In this document: positions 3,670 through 64,000 of the stretch, piece by piece | How the letters are laid out: each line of letters begins with the position of its first letter | How positions within the stretch are numbered: the first letter of the stretch is position 1 | Origin: a virus | Strand: one strand, 5' to 3' | DNA: 64,000 nucleotides | IMG/VR virus record: IMGVR_UViG_3300044641_004856 | Location: 28,875-92,874 of that record | Made by a program: the position numbers and the translations under genes | Notes under the pieces: generated by a model | Told to the model about the DNA's origin: nothing | Seen by the model: only the letters and a program-made list of their open reading frames with translations | Database searches by the model: none

Positions 3670-4310
3670 CACTAGGTCCTTTATTTTTAGAAGAAGACAA
3701 CATGCTCAAAGAAAAACTTAAAGGCATTCTTGTCCATGACCAACGAGCAGACAACGAAAAAATTGGTCGTCCTGTGCAGGTATGGTTTGGTCAACCTGAC
3801 GTTGAACTTAGAGACCAGACTTACCCATTTATTACTATTGACTTAATTGACATTCTTGAGGACCGTGCTCGCTCACATAGAGGCAAGGTTAACAAAACTA
3901 CCGCTCCATATTTAGAGCCTGCAAATTTTCCTGTTAACAAGGCTTGGGAAATTGATTACCCAATTCCAGTAAACCTTGATTACCAAGTAACGACGTATTC
4001 ACGTCAACCTCGACATGATAGAGAAATTCTTGCTGAACTTCTCTACTCAAGATTAAAGTTTCGCAATGCGACTTTAATCGGTAATGACGATACCGTCCGT
4101 CGTCTTGATGTTCTCGATGTCTCAAAACGAGATGTTGTAGAACAGGCTAAACGCCTGTTTGTAAATGCAATTACTGTGCGTGTTTCAAGTGAAATTCCAC
4201 AGGATATGTATGAAGAGTTCTACAAGGTGCAAAAAGTTAAAGTCACTGGTTCCGCTCCTGCTCCAAGGCAGAGGATTATCGGAGTCAACTACGAACAAAC
4301 ATCTCGCTAA
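3666..4310 (+). CDS. Tail terminator / sheath-capping protein
   Basis: YPFITIDLIDI...PVNLDYQVTTYSR pattern; immediately upstream of the sheath gene. Confidence 0.65.
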   Translation: MTLGPLFLEEDNMLKEKLKGILVHDQRADNEKIGRPVQVWFGQPDVELRDQTYPFITIDLIDILEDRARSHRGKVNKTTAPYLEPANFPVNKAWEIDYPIPVNLDYQVTTYSRQPRHDREILAELLYSRLKFRNATLIGNDDTVRRLDVLDVSKRDVVEQAKRLFVNAITVRVSSEIPQDMYEEFYKVQKVKVTGSAPAPRQRIIGVNYEQTSR

Positions 4311-34043: not shown

Positions 34044-34361
34044 ATGGATGAACCGTCTTACACATGGCGGTATAAAGCAAAGTGTCGCGGAGAAGATACT
34101 GACACCTTTTACCCACCTCGTGATAAAGAAAAGTACACAATCATTGCAGATAGAGCAAAGACGTTTTGTTTTGGAGCCACAGGGAACAAGCCCTGTCCAG
34201 TTCGTTTAAATTGTCTGTGGGATGCTGTAGAAAGGGATGAGCCACATGGAATTTGGGGAGGCCTGTCTCATCGAGAAAGAAATGCTCTAATTCGCAAATG
34301 GAAAAAGAAGTACAAAAAAACTATGTCGTTAGAACAATACATTAAAGAACTAGAGGATTAA
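34044..34361 (+). CDS. whiB: WhiB-family transcriptional regulator
   Basis: WRYKAKC...AKTFC...CPVRLNC...GIWGGLSHRER. Confidence 0.92.
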   Translation: MDEPSYTWRYKAKCRGEDTDTFYPPRDKEKYTIIADRAKTFCFGATGNKPCPVRLNCLWDAVERDEPHGIWGGLSHRERNALIRKWKKKYKKTMSLEQYIKELED

Positions 34362-49597: not shown

Positions 49598-49610
49598 AAG
49601 AAAATGATAC

Positions 49611-49650
49611 AAAAAAACCCCCCACAGCAGTTGCTGTAGGGGGTTTTTTT
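49611..49650. terminator. Bidirectional intrinsic terminator
   Basis: AAAAAAACCCCCCACAGC-AGTT-GCTGTAGGGGGTTTTTTT. Confidence 0.85.
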
Positions 49651-49804
49651 ACTTACCTAATCGTGTTTTTGCTTCGTTAGACTTAATACTGGAGTATCCA
49701 GTCTTCTTTTTATTCATACTTCCTGGAACTTTGCCACCAGGACCTTTATGATTGGCTTTACGAACTTCAAGACTTGCTTGTATTTTATCTAGGTGTTTGC
49801 CCAT
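49649..49804 (-). CDS. Lys-rich microprotein (51 aa)
   Basis: Manual translation MGKHLDKIQASLEVRKANHKGPGGKVPGSMNKKKTG...; GAGGAGG RBS. Confidence 0.7.
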   Translation of the reverse strand: MGKHLDKIQASLEVRKANHKGPGGKVPGSMNKKKTGYSSIKSNEAKTRLGK

Positions 49805-53294: not shown

Positions 53295-53302
53295 GTTGCC
53301 TC

Positions 53303-53629
53303 CTATGCTTTCTTGTAGGTATAACTTACGGTATAGGTTTGAGTGTCTCTGTCATAGACACGAATTGAAGGGCACTTCTTGCCCCTAACTTTGTTAATGC
53401 ACTTGAATACTGCAGGAGTATCTGTGCATTCCCAATGGTGTTCGTGACACTTCTTGCAATTATTTTCATCGCAGTCACGATAGGTAATTTCAAGGCAGGC
53501 TTCACAATAGGTTGCAAAGCATTCTCCACCCTTATGAAAGTTCCAGTAAGAACAATCTCTCCATGACTCTTCAGCGTTACAACACTTACTAAGCGTTGGC
53601 ACTCCTGTGCTTAACTCTCCTGTTTTCAT
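53303..53629 (-). CDS. Cys-rich hypothetical protein
   Basis: 108 aa, many Cys; ATGA overlap. Confidence 0.6.
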   Translation of the reverse strand: MKTGELSTGVPTLSKCCNAEESWRDCSYWNFHKGGECFATYCEACLEITYRDCDENNCKKCHEHHWECTDTPAVFKCINKVRGKKCPSIRVYDRDTQTYTVSYTYKKA

Positions 53630-53952
53630 GAAGACACCTTGATACAGAAGTTCTCTTCATCTTTCCATGGAAGTGGTGTGATGAAATAGCCGATACGGTT
53701 TACAACTGCACGTCCATTAACTATGTAAGTGCCTCCGTTGTCTCCGTCAACAAGAGTCCATACGTTGTGGTAATCGCAAGCGTAAACAAAGGCTTGCTCT
53801 TCTCCGTATGTCTCATAAAGAATACCTACACCATTTTCATCTTGCCATGAAGCGTTTTCAACAAGCGTGTTCCCTATCGGCTTGTATGTGTTTTGCCATT
53901 TATCGAGAGTGATACGGCGTTGCTTAGTTGCTGTTGCTAGTTGTGTTTTCAT
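53626..53952 (-). CDS. Hypothetical protein
   Basis: LYETYGEE...VWTLVDGD...VNRIGYFIT..PW; GGAGGCA RBS. Confidence 0.7.
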   Translation of the reverse strand: MKTQLATATKQRRITLDKWQNTYKPIGNTLVENASWQDENGVGILYETYGEEQAFVYACDYHNVWTLVDGDNGGTYIVNGRAVVNRIGYFITPLPWKDEENFCIKVSS

Positions 53953-54568
53953 GTGTTGCCTCCTTTTTTTGTGTTGGGTATTTGATACGAGTTAATGCAC
54001 GTGAGTTACCAGCAGTTTTTCTGTATCCGTAACGAACCAAACGCAGGTTAATTGCGCCAACAGTTAACCCAAGTTCTTGTGCGATTGTGTATGTGCTAAC
54101 TCCTAAGAGAGTCTGCTCATGAATTAAGCGTGTGAACTCTTCTGCTTCTGTTCTGTTCTTAGACCCCTTGCCTCTAAGAAGAGTGGCAGTTGCATGAAGT
54201 TCTTTAAGAACTTTTAGTGCTTCAGGGTCAATAGGAGTTTTCCTATAAACAACCTTCTTTATACGAGCACGCTTTGGAACTGGTTGACTAGCAACTGAGA
54301 GCATGAGTTGGAACGGTTCTCGTTCGAGTTTATCTACGATTAACCTAATCATCTCTCGTGTTACACCAACAGCCTGCCCGATACTTTCAAGAGACCAACC
54401 TTCTTCTTTTCTAAGTCTCCATACGTATTGGTTTCTTTCTTCTTTTGTCTTAAAAGACTTAAAGATTAAATACACTTCAGGAGTTAGCAACTGATTTCTT
54501 ACAGGGCTACCTTCTGTAACTTCTTTAATCTTCTTTACGTAATTGGGATTTATGCTTGGGTATTTCAT
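53924..54568 (-). CDS. Double-HTH DNA-binding protein (sigma-70 region 4-like)
   Basis: GWSLESIGQAVGVTREMIRLI and STYTIAQELGLT. Confidence 0.75.
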   Translation of the reverse strand: MKYPSINPNYVKKIKEVTEGSPVRNQLLTPEVYLIFKSFKTKEERNQYVWRLRKEEGWSLESIGQAVGVTREMIRLIVDKLEREPFQLMLSVASQPVPKRARIKKVVYRKTPIDPEALKVLKELHATATLLRGKGSKNRTEAEEFTRLIHEQTLLGVSTYTIAQELGLTVGAINLRLVRYGYRKTAGNSRALTRIKYPTQKKEATHENTTSNSN

Positions 54569-55161
54569 AGTGCCACCAACCCTTCTACTTGTTCAGCCGT
54601 TAAAGAAGTTATCATTCCGTTTGAATCAGTAACAGCGTTAGTAATTACTACGTTACCTAACAGAACTGTTTCATCATCTTTGCCAAACTCGTTAAGCCAT
54701 AATTTTGTTGCGGTGAAGTTTGGAACTAACCCTAGGTTCTTAAAGCGTGCTTCTTCGTTAAACCATAGTGTTATGTTTTGAGAAGGTAGGGTCTTGCACT
54801 CAACGTATCCTTTGCATGTTGATTGTAAGAACTCTAACTGGTCTTCTGCTTTAACTTCTTGAACTGCTTTCGTTCCGTCTTCGTAAAAGATAACTGCTTT
54901 AACTTCTTTATAATTTACGTAAGCATTGGAACTACCACAAACCAAACACAGAACTTCTTTATCATTCCGTTCTGTATCTTCATTGAAGTTAAAGGCTTCA
55001 ACGTATGGGTCGAAAGGAGTTACCGACTCACAAGGCATACACCATGTCCATTCGATGTTGTCAAACTTTCCGACGTAATCGAATACCCCATACTGTCCAT
55101 GACGTGCATAGACTTCATTACACAAGTCGTAGATGTTTCTCGGTGCAGGGTTAGTTGCCAC
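54565..55161 (-). CDS. Protein with C-terminal DUF3846-like domain
   Basis: LQ...GYVE...LWFNEE...N.TAT...LLGNVVI; GTG 55161 after AGGAGGAG. Confidence 0.65.
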   Translation of the reverse strand: MATNPAPRNIYDLCNEVYARHGQYGVFDYVGKFDNIEWTWCMPCESVTPFDPYVEAFNFNEDTERNDKEVLCLVCGSSNAYVNYKEVKAVIFYEDGTKAVQEVKAEDQLEFLQSTCKGYVECKTLPSQNITLWFNEEARFKNLGLVPNFTATKLWLNEFGKDDETVLLGNVVITNAVTDSNGMITSLTAEQVEGLVAL

Positions 55162-55513
55162 GATACTCCTCCTGTGTTTGAGCAAACTTGAATGGAGTGT
55201 AAGAAGGGTCGCTATTAATAATTCTTCCCAACTCTTCAAGTTCTGAGTCAGTAAAGTTATCTATTGCTTCCCAATCTTCTTTTGCCCATGAATCAGTATC
55301 AACAACACACAAGCCACTTGCCCAACCGTAGTTAGAATCTTTAGCGATGTATGTTGCTTTATCAAAGTCAACAACACGAATGTAAACTTCGCCGTCAACC
55401 TTAACAACTCCGTCAGCAATTAAAGATAGTCCTGAACCTGCTATTGCATTAGCAAGAGTGCTTAGGTCTATGTCTTCTTTTGAAGAGATAATTATTGCAA
55501 CTTGATTACTCAT
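55151..55513 (-). CDS. Acidic hypothetical protein
   Basis: 120 aa; GGAGGCA RBS. Confidence 0.65.
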   Translation of the reverse strand: MSNQVAIIISSKEDIDLSTLANAIAGSGLSLIADGVVKVDGEVYIRVVDFDKATYIAKDSNYGWASGLCVVDTDSWAKEDWEAIDNFTDSELEELGRIINSDPSYTPFKFAQTQEEYRGN

Positions 55514-55516
55514 AAG

Positions 55517-55756
55517 TTATGCCTCCATTTCGTTTTCGATTGCGGAATAGATGTCATCATAAGTTCCTTCAGTATCAAACTCTCCTGAAGCAACACTCTT
55601 CCAAACTTCTTTAGTTAAAGGTTTGTAATTGTCTTCTTCGGAATTGTTATCTTCCCAACTTTCTTCTAAATCCCAAAACGTCCACCATGCAACAACGATT
55701 TCTTCTTTAGGGTCTAGTTTGCTTAACGCTTTGATTACGCTTTCTACTGTTGCCAT
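55517..55756 (-). CDS. Acidic hypothetical protein (paralog family)
   Basis: MATVESVIKALSKLDPKEEIVVAWW...KEVWK. Confidence 0.7.
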   Translation of the reverse strand: MATVESVIKALSKLDPKEEIVVAWWTFWDLEESWEDNNSEEDNYKPLTKEVWKSVASGEFDTEGTYDDIYSAIENEMEA

Positions 55757-55759
55757 TAT

Positions 55760-56026
55760 TTATGCCTCCACTTCTACGAGTTTGATACCACGTTTTTTTA
55801 ATTGCTTTTCAATCATTTCTGAGATGACTCCCTGAATACCCATGATGTCATCTCCTGTTGGTGCTTTATCAATGGCTTTTTTCCAAACGTCTAACGGAAG
55901 AGTTACGCCGTAATCTTCTTTTAGTTCTTCAGCAAAGTCTGAGTAACCAAAGTATGTAACCCATAATTCATCTTCAGGTTTGAAGTCCTTTTGCAAGTCT
56001 TCTATAAGTTCTTTTACTGTTGTCAT
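55760..56026 (-). CDS. Acidic hypothetical protein (paralog family)
   Basis: MTTVKELIEDLQKDFKPEDELWVTYF...LDVWK; GGAGGCA RBS supports ATG 56026. Confidence 0.7.
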   Translation of the reverse strand: MTTVKELIEDLQKDFKPEDELWVTYFGYSDFAEELKEDYGVTLPLDVWKKAIDKAPTGDDIMGIQGVISEMIEKQLKKRGIKLVEVEA

Positions 56027-56030
56027 TAGG

Positions 56031-56267
56031 TTATGCCTCCTGTTCTGTATAAGCATCGTCGTAGCCTTGGTTATGACCTAACGCCCAAACTTTGTGTAGC
56101 ATTTCTTCTAGTTCTTTAGTGGTAAAGAACTTTAACTTAACGTCTTTTGCAACCTTCACGTCTTTAGGGTTTGCCATTACAACGTGTGTTGCAAAGATGT
56201 TTCTTGCAAGTGTTTCTATTTCTTTCTTATCTTCTTTAGTTGGGTTTCCAAGTTCTCTTTTGCTCAT
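56031..56267 (-). CDS. Hypothetical protein
   Basis: 78 aa; GGAGG RBS. Confidence 0.65.
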   Translation of the reverse strand: MSKRELGNPTKEDKKEIETLARNIFATHVVMANPKDVKVAKDVKLKFFTTKELEEMLHKVWALGHNQGYDDAYTEQEA

Positions 56268-56270
56268 GGG

Positions 56271-56468
56271 TTAAGCCTCCTTTGATAGTCGTTGTTCTTC
56301 TTTAGTAATTAAAAAGAGAGCAAGACGAATGCCGTCTGCTTTGCCGTCTGTGTAGTGAAAGTTAGAATCTGCTCCGTCTTCAAGAGCATGGCTTATCTCC
56401 ACAGTCTTTAACTCGGAACGTAACTTCTTTCTGATGTTCTCAAGCGGTAGTTGAATCTCTTTAATCAT
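56271..56468 (-). CDS. Hypothetical protein
   Basis: 65 aa; GGAGGCA RBS. Confidence 0.65.
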   Translation of the reverse strand: MIKEIQLPLENIRKKLRSELKTVEISHALEDGADSNFHYTDGKADGIRLALFLITKEEQRLSKEA

Positions 56469-56713
56469 GCGCTTGCCTCCTTTAGTTGGTCTGCTTGTTC
56501 GAATTGAAGTGCATACACAAGTGCATACACTTTTTGCATAGCGTCTGTGTAACCTCTGTGATACTCATAGCCTCCAACAACTGCTTCTTCACCAGTTGCT
56601 TCAGATAAGTTCTTTTGCTGATTGATAATTTCAAGCAAGACTTCTCCATGAATAATTTCATGAATCGGTGTGCCTAGTGCGAGCAGGTTTTTTTGTTGCG
56701 GAGTTGCATTCAT
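56465..56713 (-). CDS. Hypothetical protein
   Basis: 82 aa, coupled. Confidence 0.65.
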   Translation of the reverse strand: MNATPQQKNLLALGTPIHEIIHGEVLLEIINQQKNLSEATGEEAVVGGYEYHRGYTDAMQKVYALVYALQFEQADQLKEASA

Positions 56714-56994
56714 ACTGTTACCTCTTCTCTCTTCTTGTTCATGATTGATACGTATTGTTCGTGAATCCAGTCAGCGAACGTGTTTCCCATTTCTTCCCAT
56801 TCGAGAATGTTTTGAACAACTTCAACTAACTCATTCCAAACTTCTTTTGGAACTTCTTCATAGTCCATGGTGTCTTCGAGAAACTCGCAACCCCATTCGT
56901 TGTTATCTGCATACTCCTTTGTAACCCATTCGATAATAATTTCTTCGTCAGGATTGAGTGCTTGTAAGTATTCGATTGCCTTGGATACTTTCAT
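56710..56994 (-). CDS. Acidic hypothetical protein (paralog family)
   Basis: MKVSKAIEYLQALNPDEEIIIEWV...KEVWN; ATGA coupling at 56994. Confidence 0.7.
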   Translation of the reverse strand: MKVSKAIEYLQALNPDEEIIIEWVTKEYADNNEWGCEFLEDTMDYEEVPKEVWNELVEVVQNILEWEEMGNTFADWIHEQYVSIMNKKREEVTV

Positions 56995-57695
56995 GATTGA
57001 TACTTCCCAGCACACACAGCACCCATACCTCTTGCAACAGATACTGCTCTTGTTAGTGCACGACCACAATGCACACAGCAACCAAACTGAACGCTTAGTT
57101 CGATTGCCTTAGATAAAGTCAAACGATGTTCAGGCTTTAACTCAAAGAGCACCGATTGCTTTGTTGTGTCGTAATCGAATCCGTCATGATTACGATTGAT
57201 TGTCCATACTTGAAGTTTGCGACTATTCAAACCCATACGGATTTGGTAAATAGAGTTATTAAGAAGGTATGCACCAACTTCTTTTATCTCAGGTTCTAAA
57301 GACGGTGCGTCTTTGAGTTGTGTAATTAATCCACTTACTGAATCAATAGACAACTGCTCCAACACAGTTACACCTTCTTTTGAAAGTGTTGCAGAAAGTA
57401 AGGCTTTGCCTTCTTGCTTGTCCTGCACCAGTTTCCCTAGCAACCAAAGTTGCTTTGATGTTGCAAGGCGAACAACGCCTGCTTTGTTTGGGCACTTAAG
57501 AAGATTAGCAATTAACTCAGTTGCTCCTTGCACGTTAAGTAATGCAAAGTCAGGAGTGTCATAAGAATGTTGCTTTGTATCAAGTAACTTCTTTATGAAG
57601 TTTGCCTGCTTCTCACTTGCATAGCGAACCTTGTATTCGCCGTATTGATTACCACCACGTGCACCAGCCTTACGATGTTTTGTTTTTGTAGCCAT
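56991..57695 (-). CDS. Protein with C-terminal DUF6011-like zinc finger
   Basis: ASEKQ/ATSKQ repeats; CVHCGRALT..SVARGMGAVC. Confidence 0.75.
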   Translation of the reverse strand: MATKTKHRKAGARGGNQYGEYKVRYASEKQANFIKKLLDTKQHSYDTPDFALLNVQGATELIANLLKCPNKAGVVRLATSKQLWLLGKLVQDKQEGKALLSATLSKEGVTVLEQLSIDSVSGLITQLKDAPSLEPEIKEVGAYLLNNSIYQIRMGLNSRKLQVWTINRNHDGFDYDTTKQSVLFELKPEHRLTLSKAIELSVQFGCCVHCGRALTRAVSVARGMGAVCAGKYQS

Positions 57696-57731
57696 AGTTT
57701 TGCCTCCCTAGTTTTTTTGTTGCGGATTGGG

Positions 57732-57887
57732 TTATGGATAGAGCAAGTCTTTGCAGAACGAACTCATCTGTTCAACAGGAACTTTGCATTCAGCAGGGGT
57801 AGTTGCATTGAATGCCCAAGCGATAAAGCATAAGAAGATTGCTAACACGACCAACCTTCTTATTCGGTATTTAGTTTGCATTCGCAT
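57732..57887 (-). CDS. Small membrane protein
   Basis: MRMQTKYRIRRLVVLAIFLCFIAWAF...; AGGAGG RBS. Confidence 0.6.
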   Translation of the reverse strand: MRMQTKYRIRRLVVLAIFLCFIAWAFNATTPAECKVPVEQMSSFCKDLLYP

Positions 57888-58038
57888 GTGCTTCCTCCTT
57901 TGATTGAATTGATACAGGCGTTGCCATGTTCTTGAATCGAATTGCAATTTCTTTTGCTTTTGGGTATTGACTTGCAATTAAAGATTGAAGAACAATACTT
58001 AGTTCTTCATCATTGACTGAAAGAATGTGTAGTGTCAC
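57871..58038 (-). CDS. Hypothetical protein (55 aa)
   Basis: Manual translation from GTG: MTLHILSVNDEELSIVLQSL...; GGAGGCA RBS; GTGA overlap. Confidence 0.55.
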   Translation of the reverse strand: MTLHILSVNDEELSIVLQSLIASQYPKAKEIAIRFKNMATPVSIQSKEEAHANAN

Positions 58039-58250
58039 CAGTTTGCCTCCACTTCTTCTATCTTCTCTTCATGTTGAGTTTGGATAAACAAAGGAACAAG
58101 AGTGTCATGAATAAACGCTTCTCCTTTAAACCATTCTGTGTGAGTTCCATACTCTGCACCAAACCATGTGCGTGCAGAGTAATCACCAAACGTCCATTCG
58201 TATTTAACTTCTGTTACTTCTGCTACTGATACTTCTTTTGTATTAGCCAT
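58035..58250 (-). CDS. Hypothetical protein
   Basis: 71 aa; AAGGAG RBS. Confidence 0.6.
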   Translation of the reverse strand: MANTKEVSVAEVTEVKYEWTFGDYSARTWFGAEYGTHTEWFKGEAFIHDTLVPLFIQTQHEEKIEEVEANW

Positions 58251-58974: not shown

Positions 58975-59571
58975 TTATGCCACCTCTTCTTTCTTGTCGT
59001 AGACGAGTTCGATTAAACGTTCCATGTCACGCAAAGTAATACTTACTCTTGCATGACTAGAGTCTGAGTAGTAAGGCACTTCGATGTTTACGTCATCGAA
59101 TAACTTTCCACCCAGTAGTGACTTAATTGTGTTTGGCATAGTTAACTTTGCACGTTCTGCATGTTCTTGAATCTGTTTTTTCTTTGCACGAACGATTGCT
59201 TCTTGTGCTTCTTGTTCTGCACGTAGTCGCTTCTCTTCTGCTTCACGTGCATTCCATACACCTTGAACGATGTCATAGCGTGCAACGATACTTGCAACTC
59301 GTGTGACGTAATAAAACGTCTCACCATTATCGTCTGTAATTGTAAAGAGCAAACCAACTCCCTTTACTTCTTTCTTTGGTGCAGGAGAGAAGTCTGCTTC
59401 TTCTTTTGAAGGGCGAGTATCTTTCCAGTAATACTTATCCTTGGAGACAAGTTTTGCTTTGTAGATGTTGTGCCTCTGCACGTGGTTAAGGTCAACAGCA
59501 TTACGCTTTGTGTATGTGAATGAGTTAAGAATTGCATACTCAACACCTACTTCGAGTTCTGAAAGTTTCAT
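58975..59571 (-). CDS. Hypothetical protein with coiled coil
   Basis: 198 aa; MKLSELEVGVEYA. Confidence 0.7.
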   Translation of the reverse strand: MKLSELEVGVEYAILNSFTYTKRNAVDLNHVQRHNIYKAKLVSKDKYYWKDTRPSKEEADFSPAPKKEVKGVGLLFTITDDNGETFYYVTRVASIVARYDIVQGVWNAREAEEKRLRAEQEAQEAIVRAKKKQIQEHAERAKLTMPNTIKSLLGGKLFDDVNIEVPYYSDSSHARVSITLRDMERLIELVYDKKEEVA

Positions 59572-59627
59572 AAGAAGTTACCTACTTTCTTTTGGTTGGT
59601 GGATTTTTTGTTGCGGTGAAAGATTGT

Positions 59628-59688
59628 GCAGGGCAGAGAGGGAAGTCTCTGCCCTGCTAGTTAGTTGGAGAGGCAACTACAACTAACT
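59628..59688 (-). other. Intergenic tandem hairpins with loops complementary to early-gene RBSs
   Basis: Perfect 12-bp stem 59628-59657 and 9-bp stem 59659-59688; see findings. Confidence 0.6.
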
Positions 59689-59690
59689 CC

Positions 59691-61667
59691 TCATTGAGAT
59701 ACCAAACGACGTGCGATTGCAGTTCGCACTAGTGATTGACCAAGAGACAAGATGTCTTTGGCTTCACCAATTCGTTTGATTATCTCAAAGTTATGTCTGC
59801 ACCTTTCTAATCCTTCATTCGAAACTTCATTAGGATAGAGAAGTGCTTGGCAAGTGAGAACACCTGCTTCTTTCATTCTTCTTACAGACTCTTCCGCTTT
59901 ATCTCCGCCCCATGCACCGTCAGTAATCATGAAGAGAATGCGGATTGGCTTGTCTGTAGTAGCAAGAATGTTTTGTGCATTTAAGATTGCAACTTCAGGT
60001 TGTGTTGTTCCACTTGCACCTGAATCTCTTACTGTTGTATCTGCTTTTTCATCTGCAGAATAAAGTAAGTGAGTATGTGAATCAAACGTGTAAACAGTTG
60101 TGCGTGCCTGCACTTTGTCTAAAGAACGTTTGATAGCCCACAAACTTTTGTATGCTTCTTTTGCATTGTGACCTTGCATTGAAGAAGAACGGTCAAGAAG
60201 AATAACTGCTTCGATTGCAGTTACGTCATCGCGACCGCTTTGCCACTTGTTAAACAAAGTGCGAACACTTGCACCTTGCATGTAACGATTGGCATTTAAC
60301 TTTCCACTTCGTTGCTCAGTTAACCATGAAGGGTCGTAGTTTGCTTTGAGTCTTTCTAACTCACGAGCAAACGAACGTTGCACCATTACTAAGTCTGCAG
60401 TTGCAGATACAGAACGGTAATCAGCACGTGATACCGACTCTGCATTAACAGTTCCCATAAGAGGTTTACCAACAACCTGCATTGATAACTTATTTAGATT
60501 ATCCATAAGTTCTTCAGTAACTGATTGGATAATCTCTTCCATGGTGTCTGTAACTTCTTGAGAGTTTGCAGTTTTACTTTTACCACCAGCACCAGCATGA
60601 CGGCTTAAGTTATCTGCTTCATAAGAATCATCAGACTCTGAATCATCATCAGAATCTTCAGCAACAGTTACGTCACCAAAGTCAGAAGAAGAATCGGAAT
60701 CTTCTTTTGAATCTGAATCATCATCTGAATCTAATTCATCATCAGAATCATTACCACCATTACCACCTTTATCGTTTGGGTCTGCAAAGTTATCTGAAGA
60801 AGAGTTAGATTGTGAATCTGAATCTGAATCTGAATCATCATCAGAATCTGAATCATCATCAGAATCAGCAGAAGAAGATTGTGTATCTTCTTTATCTAAT
60901 TCTTTTTCTTGCTTCTCTGCATTCTTACGGTCACGCTCTTGTTCACGCTTTGGTGCAGGACGTGAATCAGAAGACTCATGACCTTGGAATGGTCTCGCTT
61001 CATGACCGTTTGGGTCTGCAAGATTATCGCCCTGAATTAATTCTGCGAATCGTGCAATTAATTCTTTTGCACGTTCTGTATCGTCAGGGAATAACAGCAA
61101 ACGGTATTCATCAATTACTTCACCAAGTGCAACTATGTTTTCTTGTTTTGCATAGTGCTTGCGTGCAAGTTGACGAATCTCAAGAGGCAAGTATCTGCGA
61201 CCGCGTAATAACGGATACGCATTCTCGATTGCTTCAGGAGTATTAAGAATGAATTGTGCAACAGTTGCAGTCAACCAATTAACAGTTGAAGGGAATCTGC
61301 CAACCATAAGTGTTTCGATACGTTGGTCTTCTAACGCATTGAATGCTTTCCAGTAATTGTTTTCAATTACCCATAAGCAGATGTCAGAACCGTTACGTGG
61401 TGTGTAACGAACGTGTGCTAACTCGTGAAAGTCCAAGCCTTGGATTGATAACAAAGTCTCTGTATCAAACTTGTCATTAATCTTTGCTTCGTTGAACCAT
61501 ACGTCGTTAGCACCCGACCAAGCAGGAGCACCGTCAGGTTGATTGACGATGTGCACTTTAATTGGACGAAGTGCAATAACAGAATTAGCACGTTGAAACA
61601 CTTGTGCTAATCGAAGTAATCTATCGCGCTTTTCGTTCTGTTGTTCTTGTGTTGTTAGTTGTTGCAT
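59691..61667 (-). CDS. vWA-domain protein (CobT-like) with HExxH region and Asp/Ser-rich linker
   Basis: HELAH, NALEDQRIE, MIDAS LLDRSSSM, GTT, ITDG. Confidence 0.85.
   Translation of the reverse strand: MQQLTTQEQQNEKRDRLLRLAQVFQRANSVIALRPIKVHIVNQPDGAPAWSGANDVWFNEAKINDKFDTETLLSIQGLDFHELAHVRYTPRNGSDICLWVIENNYWKAFNALEDQRIETLMVGRFPSTVNWLTATVAQFILNTPEAIENAYPLLRGRRYLPLEIRQLARKHYAKQENIVALGEVIDEYRLLLFPDDTERAKELIARFAELIQGDNLADPNGHEARPFQGHESSDSRPAPKREQERDRKNAEKQEKELDKEDTQSSSADSDDDSDSDDDSDSDSDSQSNSSSDNFADPNDKGGNGGNDSDDELDSDDDSDSKEDSDSSSDFGDVTVAEDSDDDSESDDSYEADNLSRHAGAGGKSKTANSQEVTDTMEEIIQSVTEELMDNLNKLSMQVVGKPLMGTVNAESVSRADYRSVSATADLVMVQRSFARELERLKANYDPSWLTEQRSGKLNANRYMQGASVRTLFNKWQSGRDDVTAIEAVILLDRSSSMQGHNAKEAYKSLWAIKRSLDKVQARTTVYTFDSHTHLLYSADEKADTTVRDSGASGTTQPEVAILNAQNILATTDKPIRILFMITDGAWGGDKAEESVRRMKEAGVLTCQALLYPNEVSNEGLERCRHNFEIIKRIGEAKDILSLGQSLVRTAIARRLVSQ
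60620..60880 (-). repeat. Low-complexity (GAT/TCA)n repeat encoding an Asp/Ser linker
   Basis: GAATCTGAATCATCATCA-like units; DSDDDSDSDDD in the protein. Confidence 0.8.
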
Positions 61668-61730
61668 GACTGCCTCTCTGTAGATTTTTTGTTGCGGATT
61701 TTTTTATAAAGAATGTTGCAAGAGTGCAGA

Positions 61731-63134: not shown

Positions 63135-63308
63135 TTAGTTTGCCTCTCTGTAGTGATTGATTGCGATTTGTAGTTCAGTTACTGCCTCTTCTAAAAGAAG
63201 ATTGTTCAAACGTATTTTGCGAATTGAATTACGTTTTGTATAACTGCGTTCGATTAGTTCGTCAGCAGTTAGGTATTTATCTTTTGTATCTTTGTATGTC
63301 TTAGCCAT
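63135..63308 (-). CDS. Small hypothetical protein, first gene of the leftward operon (57 aa)
   Basis: Manual translation MAKTYKDTKDKYLTADELIERS...HYREAN; AAAGGGAAG upstream. Confidence 0.65.
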   Translation of the reverse strand: MAKTYKDTKDKYLTADELIERSYTKRNSIRKIRLNNLLLEEAVTELQIAINHYREAN

Positions 63309-63405
63309 GACTTCCCTTTCATAGTGTGTAGTTCGATTAACTACACAAGGCGTATGACTAACAACGTGAAGTAGTTAGTCACACACCTTGCGTATTTAAT
63401 TTTGG

Positions 63406-63433
63406 AATGTAAGTAGAATAAATAAGATTGCAA
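63406..63433 (-). promoter_or_regulatory. Candidate sigma-70-type early promoter
   Basis: Minus strand TTGCAA-N16-TACATT. Confidence 0.45.
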
Positions 63434-63914
63434 GTAACCGTTTGAGTTTGTCGCACTAGGCGTAGTTACTAATTATTTATTGTGCAGATTAAGTGCACAC
63501 TTAAAGTCGTTAGCAATAGTTGCGATGTTGTAGAACCAACTATGTAAAAGTTTTGCTGTATGAATTATTTACTGAATCTAAAGAAGTTCGTTTGATTATG
63601 TAATCACGTAACTTGATTGATTGATTGTAAAAAAATAAATAATTACTTTTACTCTCTCACCACGACTAAGACCCTCGGGCTAACGACTTGACGTAATTAT
63701 TGCATGAGGGGTAGCCCACCTGCAAATCGGGGTAAAAGCGGTGTGTCCTGAGCGTAAACGCCAGCCCTCCCCATAGGTATTACTCCCCCTTGGCGAATAA
63801 ATTGTTAAAAAATTACGGGGCAACCAGAATGTTATTAATCGTATTAATTGTTAAAGAAGAATAGATAAATAAAGTAAACAAGTATTACTCCTGCTTGACG
63901 ATTATTTTGTAAAG

Positions 63915-63942
63915 AATGTAAGTAGTTATTAATACACGTCAA
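63915..63942 (-). promoter_or_regulatory. Candidate sigma-70-type early promoter
   Basis: Minus strand TTGACG-N16-TACATT; shares the 12-mer CTACTTACATTC with the 63406 site. Confidence 0.5.
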
Positions 63943-64000
63943 GTAATACTGCTACACACTCGGTTGCTCGGCAGGGACTATTTCGTGCGTCAATTTTAAA

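Follow-up and report, generated by a model that had tools for sequence, protein, structure and literature searches.

Directly 3' of the vWA-domain gene of a freshwater actinophage, the coding strand carries a hairpin (hairpin 1) whose loop is conserved while its stem has been turned over, and the complementarity of this loop to ribosome-binding sites (RBSs) exceeds chance and recurs at orthologous targets. The loop matches the RBSs of upstream genes and is kept despite the changes in the stem, so it is probably a built-in brake on the translation of the genes just upstream. A second hairpin (hairpin 2) follows immediately and is, judging from its sequences in relatives, a generic intergenic structure that is separate in kind from hairpin 1.

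Phage, operon and the two hairpins

The window, by which we mean the whole stretch of 64,000 nucleotides that was analysed, is the final 64 kb of one virus record of 92,874 bp, which is approximately 96% complete. All relatives of this phage are from lake metagenomes. A WhiB-like gene is located at 34044-34361 on the plus strand (Pfam Whib, 65 bits) and, as whiB is a marker of phages of Actinobacteria (PMC10202952), it marks the phage as an actinophage. Together with a G+C content of approximately 40% and the lake origin, the whiB gene suggests that the host is a low-GC freshwater actinobacterium.

The two hairpins lie in a minus-strand gene run that extends from 63308 down to about 49887 and encodes a 57-aa protein, an AAA_5 ATPase, the vWA protein, approximately 25 small proteins, a sigma-70 region 4 protein, an integrase, and a lysozyme (Table 1). 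The AAA+ and vWA genes and their neighbours are co-oriented with no terminator in between in a terminator scan, and the gene order and orientation AAA+ > vWA > 198-aa gene are identical across all loci examined. The scan found a canonical bidirectional terminator with U-tracts at 49609-49652, which ends the operon, indicating that the host polymerase does use ordinary terminators. Upstream of the operon (63309-64000) there are approximately 700 nt of non-coding DNA with two GGAGTAATAC repeats and a G+C-rich stretch at about 63650-63790, which is probably structured and has no Rfam match. The sequence TTAATCTGCAC is common to this 5' leader (63482-63498) and the hairpin at the AAA+ stop codon, both on the minus strand; it sits inside small GTGCA...TGCAC inverted repeats and may represent a repeated operator or RNA element.

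Table 1. Position and description of the features around the two hairpins, numbered in the window.
Feature	Position	Strand	Description
First operon gene (gene 1), 57 aa	63135..63308	-	start region with AGGGAAGUC at 63309-63317, adjoining the ATG
AAA+ gene (AAA_5, MoxR/CobS-like), 466 aa	61731..63131	-	start region with GAGAGGCAA at 63140-63148
Hairpin GUGCAGAU/AUCUGCAC across the AAA+ stop codon	61724..61744	-	architecture as at hairpin 2: hairpin, A-rich motif, next RBS
vWA-domain gene (CobT-like), 658 aa	59691..61667	-	start region with GAGAGGCA at 61671-61678
Hairpin 1	59659..59688	-	5' arm 59680-59688, loop 59668-59679, 3' arm 59659-59667
Hairpin 2	59628..59657	-	perfect 12-bp G+C-rich stem, 6-nt loop CUUCCC at 59640-59645
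C/A-rich, G-poor spacer to the next gene	59572..59627	-	motif CCGCAACAAAAAATC at 59602-59616
Conserved 198-aa gene 3' of the element	58975..59571	-	no Pfam family; start region complementary to neither loop
Eight further GAGGCA start regions	58044-58049, 57701-57706, 56474-56479, 56034-56039, 55763-55768, 55520-55525, 53957-53962, 53297-53302	-	each can pair with loop 1 UGCCUC

The vWA stop codon TGA occupies 59691-59693. Hairpin 1 starts 2 nt past it and consists of a 9-bp stem (AGUUAGUUG/CAACUAACU) and a 12-nt loop, UAGUUGCCUCUC, which lies 15-23 nt past the stop codon in the window. A single unpaired A at 59658 separates it from hairpin 2. The two hairpins therefore abut directly behind the vWA stop codon without a U-tract, both as given in a preliminary description of this DNA made from the sequence alone. 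With 8 G-C pairs among its 12 bp, hairpin 2 has the G+C-rich hairpin of an intrinsic (Rho-independent) terminator, but it was ruled out as one because the U-tract is absent: ACAAUCUUUCACC comes next in the window, and the sequence at this position in relatives is A-rich rather than U-rich, often with the motif GCAACAAAAAAU...CCGCACAC. The site is also unlisted by the scan that finds 49609-49652. The two-hairpin region folds much better than shuffled sequences (z = -6.1), with both loops unpaired in the predicted ensemble. No Rfam family reached its gathering score anywhere in the window, and relaxing the cut-off to E <= 10 brought up only noise. Loop 1 might also form a pseudoknot with the purines immediately 5' of the stem, but this was rejected because the purine run is variable and is absent in one of the lineages with hairpin 1 (L054, see below).

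In the spacer, the motif CCGCAACAAAAAATC stands between the hairpin and the next RBS. It repeats at 61683-61697 and also at 57713 and 56689, often with an A run before it, and is found 3' of the vWA hairpin even in relatives with proteins just 40% identical. This distribution suggests that the motif is a separate conserved signal, for example a promoter, a processing site, or a factor-binding site.

Conservation of the hairpins among relatives

For comparison we used about 70 loci encoding vWA relatives, in which gene starts were called by a simple script. A nucleotide search of the phage collection gave no match, and the CobT-like genes of Gordonia and Brevibacterium phages that a protein search gave as its only matches are distant. 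Stem-anchored pattern scans of viral contigs returned only five close relatives and chance palindromes, and a loop-plus-motif pattern scan of the viral contigs returned about 100 chance matches and nothing new. No prophage relatives were found in a scan of prokaryote genomes.

Hairpin 1 is present only in four lineages, which are the window clade (vWA identity 90-100%), L054 (51%), L176 (46%), and L185 (approximately 53%); a search with the L054 vWA protein for more contigs of that lineage found none. The four stems are unrelated in sequence (AGUUAGUUG, UUGUUCAAC, GCAACAAG, and AAUAAACAAGU, respectively), while the loop core TTGCCTC (UUGCCUC in RNA) is invariant in the window, its relative L005, L054, L176, and L185. 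In every lineage that has it, the hairpin starts 0-3 nt past the vWA stop codon. Among 10 close relatives, none of the 30 sites of hairpin 1 varies, and across both hairpins only one of the 60 sites does (0/18 in the loops). In the same relatives, the adjoining spacer varies at 20% of sites and third codon positions at 21-40%. The two-hairpin element is under purifying selection. Within the close clade, an inserted G and a linker change from A to C give hairpin 1 one extra G-C pair.

Hairpin 2 follows another pattern. A G+C-rich hairpin is found 3' of the vWA stop codon in nearly all relatives, down to 40% protein identity. Covariation was counted by a script anchored on an invariant G-C step, because MAFFT did not align hairpin 2 in structural register. 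Across 15 stem versions, 180/180 pairs are Watson-Crick or U-G, with compensatory changes at most positions, and all 10 wobbles are U-G on the coding strand. Given that the pairs are kept and that every wobble is U-G on this strand, hairpin 2 is an RNA structure of the mRNA strand. Between lineages the loop of hairpin 2 is unconserved and reads CUUCCC, UCUUACCCU, CCGUUC, AAAUAA, AAAUC, or ACAUGAGCAG. Hairpins like hairpin 2 are also located 3' of the AAA+ gene, with equivalents at that position in L176 and L185, and 3' of a 374-aa plus-strand gene (genome coordinate 13788). The most likely role of hairpin 2 is to block 3'-exonucleases or to mark a processing point, which would set the 3' end of gene 1-AAA+-vWA.

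Complementarity to ribosome-binding sites

The 9-nt segment UUGCCUCUC of loop 1 (59668-59676) is an exact 9/9 complement of GAGAGGCAA, the AAA+ site, and an 8/9 match to the vWA site GAGAGGCAG. At the top of hairpin 2, GACUUCCCU (59639-59647) is an exact 9/9 complement of AGGGAAGUC, the gene 1 site. All strings quoted in the preliminary description, these three complements included, are present where it placed them. Its statement that the second loop presents a 9/9 complement applies to the complement itself, which is exact, but only CUUCCC belongs to the loop; the G, the A, and the last U belong to the stem, and about 5 kcal/mol is needed to open them. GAGGCA is found 2-9 nt 5' of the start codon in 10 genes of the minus-strand operon, eight of which, at 53297-58049, agree with the "at least eight more" of that description. 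Among the plus-strand genes (78 kb), GAGGCA precedes no convincing start, indicating that the early operon has its own RBS flavour.

The best predicted target of loop 1 is the AAA+ site, with a duplex energy of -16.9 kcal/mol, and several of the eight further GAGGCA sites have duplex energies of -14 to -16 kcal/mol with this loop. After subtraction of the opening costs, the net predicted energy is -10.0 kcal/mol for loop 1 with the AAA+ site, -6.1 kcal/mol for loop 1 with the vWA site, and -4 to -6 kcal/mol for the top of hairpin 2 with the gene 1 site. The RBS core GAGGCAA consists of the Shine-Dalgarno (SD) core GAGG followed by CAA. The 16S tail, which we take to be CACCUCCUUUCU, would want UG after GGAGG; the CAA is thus unexplained by the 16S tail, whereas UUG of the loop accounts for it. 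The final codons of gene 1 overlap GAGAGGCAA in the window and could place an extra constraint on the site. Sterically, a 12-nt loop leaves little room for a 9-bp helix, and this counts against the pairing model. Two further candidates were discarded: a second genomic copy of GAGAGGCAA (33919, plus strand) lies within a gene and at no start site, and the loops have no complementarity to the adjacent downstream RBS.

The preliminary description considered two loop/RBS matches unlikely by chance, and the controls agree. Of the 61-nt windows on the same strand of the genome, 0.8-0.9% contain two non-overlapping 9-mers complementary to any of 30 operon start regions, and not one among 92,692 windows matches two of the first three genes. 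When the loops were shuffled with their base content kept, 1.9% of the shuffles of loop 1 (P = 0.019) and 0.8% of those of loop 2 reached the observed duplex energy; against the first three genes only, the fractions were 0.25% (P = 0.0025) and <0.05%, respectively. These tests were scored by duplex energy, and the accessibility costs entered only the net energies given above. In the other lineages, the corresponding values for loop 1 are P = 0.003 in L054, 0.056 in L176, and 0.032 in L185. Loop 1 thus beats its shuffles in the window, L054, and L185, with L176 at the margin, whereas loop 2 does so in the window clade only, its complementarity being not significant in the other lineages tested by shuffles. 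In L005, an A to C change in the upper stem of hairpin 2 is uncompensated in the gene 1 site. An apparent covariation of loop 2 with the vWA RBS in L054 (UUACCCU versus AGGGUAA) was dropped, as shuffled loops equal it (P = 0.61).

In L176 and L185, where 6 kb of flank on each side was scanned, the best partners of loop 1 among 28 start regions are those of the AAA+ gene, the vWA gene, and the small gene before them, and all three carry GAGGCAA or a near variant. The same three targets are therefore found in the window clade, L176, and L185, the lineages whose flanking DNA was long enough. The L054 contig is 4.3 kb long and the AAA+ site is off the contig; its loop 1 matches two downstream start regions, and its vWA RBS, AAAGGGUAA, is unmatched to loop 1 and is the exception among vWA sites. 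What the preliminary description expected of both loops in related phages applies to loop 1, whose core is conserved with matching sites, but not to loop 2, which is unconserved and has no significant complementarity elsewhere.

The distribution of hairpin 1 was then set against the vWA protein tree, a quick maximum-likelihood version whose base is unresolved, on which the hairpin occupies two of three clades and requires three changes, e.g., one gain and two losses. At AAA+ and vWA, neither of the loss lineages has a site complementary to the loop: L174 and L175 read GAGGCU and AAAGGUAAC, respectively, and L004 and L051 read AAGGAGCAAC at both. In the third clade, which is without hairpin 1, the AAA+ site is AACGGA throughout. 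Within this clade, L009/L061 and L019 have kept GAGAGGCAA as the vWA RBS without hairpin 1, indicating that the site predates the loop and that pairing is not all that maintains it. The association of hairpin 1 with its RBSs on the tree is suggestive, the number of independent events behind it being only about three. At the start region of the 198-aa gene, the AAA+ and vWA pattern is inverted, with AGAGGCAACAAAUG in L174 and L175, which are without hairpin 1, and weak, non-complementary sites (GUAGGU, GCAGGU, and AUGGAU) in the lineages with hairpin 1.

Proposed function and rival explanations

We give about an even chance to hairpin 1 being an anti-SD loop that is embedded in the mRNA and limits initiation at the RBSs of the upstream cassette. 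The element would be carried on the polycistronic mRNA that is transcribed from the minus-strand operon. Its UUGCCUC(UC) loop would pair with the GAGGCAA cores of the AAA+ and vWA RBSs, and less strongly with GAGGCA sites elsewhere in the operon, limiting translation initiation. Two routes can be envisaged. In cis, one transcript would fold back from 3' to 5', as in the icaR mRNA; in trans, a stable two-hairpin decay product would act in the manner of the C-rich loops of the 6C sRNA. A terminating ribosome would have to melt hairpin 1 and, because the hairpin starts at the stop codon, the presentation of the loop may depend on vWA translation. Pairing in the cell, repression, and the choice between cis and trans action are steps that we infer from the sequences. 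The preliminary description had proposed an anti-RBS function for both hairpins. Its idea is well matched by hairpin 1, which has an invariant loop, recurring targets, and loss lineages with non-complementary sites, and poorly by hairpin 2, the loop of which varies.

In the icaR mRNA of Staphylococcus aureus, an anti-SD motif in the 3'-UTR pairs with the RBS of the same mRNA (PMC3868564). Like icaR, the phage transcript has, past the stop codon of the gene that would be regulated, a pyrimidine-rich anti-SD sequence that is complementary to the SD region of its own transcript. The motif is 3' of the stop codon on the same transcript as its target RBSs, and the complementarity is kept in the window clade, L176, and L185, with the L054 vWA site as the exception. 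The icaR element, however, is in a terminal 3'-UTR, whereas the phage element is between operon genes, in the loop of a hairpin starting at the stop codon, and matches the RBSs of two or three upstream genes that are 2-3.7 kb away. Repression and RNase cleavage are part of the icaR type, while the phage pairing is predicted from sequence. The 6C sRNA of Actinobacteria has C-rich loops that were shown experimentally to bind G-rich RBSs independently of a chaperone (PMC6486639). The phage element resembles it in having two pyrimidine-rich loops with predicted complementarity to the RBSs of several targets, and in the phylum of the host. It differs in that the 6C family is absent even at E <= 10 on 59500-59800 (Rfam), in that its loops are mixtures of U and C and not C runs, and in being embedded in an mRNA with no evident promoter or terminator of its own. 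Some Firmicutes sRNAs (RNAIII hairpins and Rsa RNAs) have UCCC-containing, C-rich hairpin loops that pair with SD sequences. Loop 2 of the phage contains UCCC as well, but the phylum is another one, the loop is unconserved between lineages, and an independent phage RNA is hypothetical.

Other explanations were weighed against the anti-SD loop. An invariant loop on covarying stems is typical of protein operators such as those of R17 coat, T4 gp43, and lambda boxB, and the behaviour of hairpin 1 fits such operators too. It could be recognized by a phage or host RNA-binding protein for mRNA stability or processing, with the RBS match as a side effect of the loop being rich in pyrimidines; the linear motif CCGCAACAAAAAAU, which is conserved, is close by. 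We consider a protein site rather unlikely, since it leaves unexplained both that the loop core is the exact GAGGCAA complement of two upstream genes in three lineages and that the GAGGCAA core is absent in both loss lineages. No RNA-binding domain was found among the neighbouring genes scanned, and with >90 nt between it and the next start codon, the hairpin is not placed like a translational operator. Stabiliser hairpins between genes are familiar from REP elements and RNase-processed 3' ends. Hairpin 2 is like them in being G+C-rich, in having no U-tract, in standing between co-transcribed genes, and in keeping its structure and not its sequence, while hairpin 1 adds a sequence-specific loop. 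If both hairpins were structural only, serving as 3'-end protection, a processing site, or a weak attenuator with coincidental RBS matches, the presence of hairpin 2 in nearly all relatives with unconserved loops would clearly be accounted for, as would the similar hairpins 3' of the AAA+ gene and of the 374-aa plus-strand gene (genome 13788), and two 9-mer start-region matches do occur in about 0.8% of random windows. A 7-nt loop core, however, should then not stay invariant while all stem positions turn over. The invariance of the loops in the close clade and the rarity with which shuffled loops pair as well also speak against a purely structural role, which we regard as improbable.

Three further readings concern polymerase, DNA, and the opposite strand. 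The put antiterminator RNA of phage HK022 consists of two stem-loops with one base between them, and the window shows two abutting stem-loops with one unpaired base inside a presumed phage early operon, beside a linear motif that is conserved and recurs through the operon. A processive antitermination element that acts on RNA polymerase, either of the put kind or like nut sites, which combine a hairpin with a linear box, is nevertheless quite improbable: the hairpin spacing varies (1 nt in the window, 0-1 nt in L185, 5 nt in L054, and 8 nt in L176), most relatives have a single hairpin and the second one is unconserved among relatives, no canonical terminator is found downstream in the operon before 49609-49652, no terminator link was seen, and there is no Rfam match. 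At the DNA level, GAGAGGCAA and TTGCCTCTC could be short inverted repeats for recombination or a DNA-binding protein, as two inverted copies bracket the 3.5-kb AAA+-vWA cassette and the match extends to 12/13 positions with one indel. The invariable order and orientation of AAA+, vWA, and the 198-aa gene make this very doubtful, as does the location of one copy always in the loop of a stem-covarying hairpin, which speaks for RNA. There is no adjacent recombinase gene; the integrase is 8 kb away. The least likely reading is transcription of the plus strand, suggested in the preliminary description as a CsrB-like decoy whose hairpins would display RBS mimics and titrate a regulator. The loops do read GAGAGGCAA and GGGAAG on that strand, but the wobble pairs contradict the idea, since all 10 wobbles of hairpin 2, which are U-G on the coding strand, would become A-C mismatches. 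No plus-strand gene or promoter-like site is nearby, and there are just two hairpins, while CsrB-type RNAs have many GGA loops. We know of no use of CsrA by Actinobacteria.

The anti-SD loop at hairpin 1 would fit a broader, more tentative proposal, to which we give somewhat less than an even chance: a translation-sensing mRNA riboregulator in freshwater actinophages, in which the loop folds onto the cassette RBSs or is released within a two-hairpin small RNA and caps, or shuts off, the translation of GAGGCAA early genes. If true, these phages would encode an anti-RBS system that needs no chaperone and has its own RBS code (GAGGCAA). What is known of post-transcriptional control within phage operons comes chiefly from a handful of model phages, and the control usually operates via proteins. 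The comparative data point here to an RNA-RNA device, with a deeply invariant loop at a stop codon that is matched to the starts of the preceding genes. If confirmed, it would provide a phage case of 3'-to-5' anti-SD pairing, show that an operon can hold a private RBS variant addressed by its own RNA, and extend the C-rich-loop mechanism of the actinobacterial 6C sRNA to viruses of that phylum. For metagenomic phage genomes, it may offer a search rule, namely a conserved loop with a changing stem and complementarity to upstream RBSs.

Pyrimidine-rich loops were also observed elsewhere. In L054, a third hairpin of the operon (3741-3783 of the contig) has a 16-bp stem and a C-rich loop, ACAAUUCCCCA, followed by CUUCCCCU; the complementarity of this loop to the few start regions of the contig is not significant. 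On the plus strand of the phage genome, 15.1 kb before the start of the window, a 13-bp hairpin lies 3' of the 374-aa gene (genome 13788-13824). The loop of this hairpin, UACUCCUUCUU, shows complementarity to the canonical SD AAGGAG, including the SD of the gene that comes next, 30 nt downstream; 3' of the hairpin there is a C/A-rich leader. A terminator hairpin at genome 14266-14307 has the loop UUUCUGCCCUCCUC. From these two loops, pyrimidine-rich anti-SD-like loops recur in the genome.
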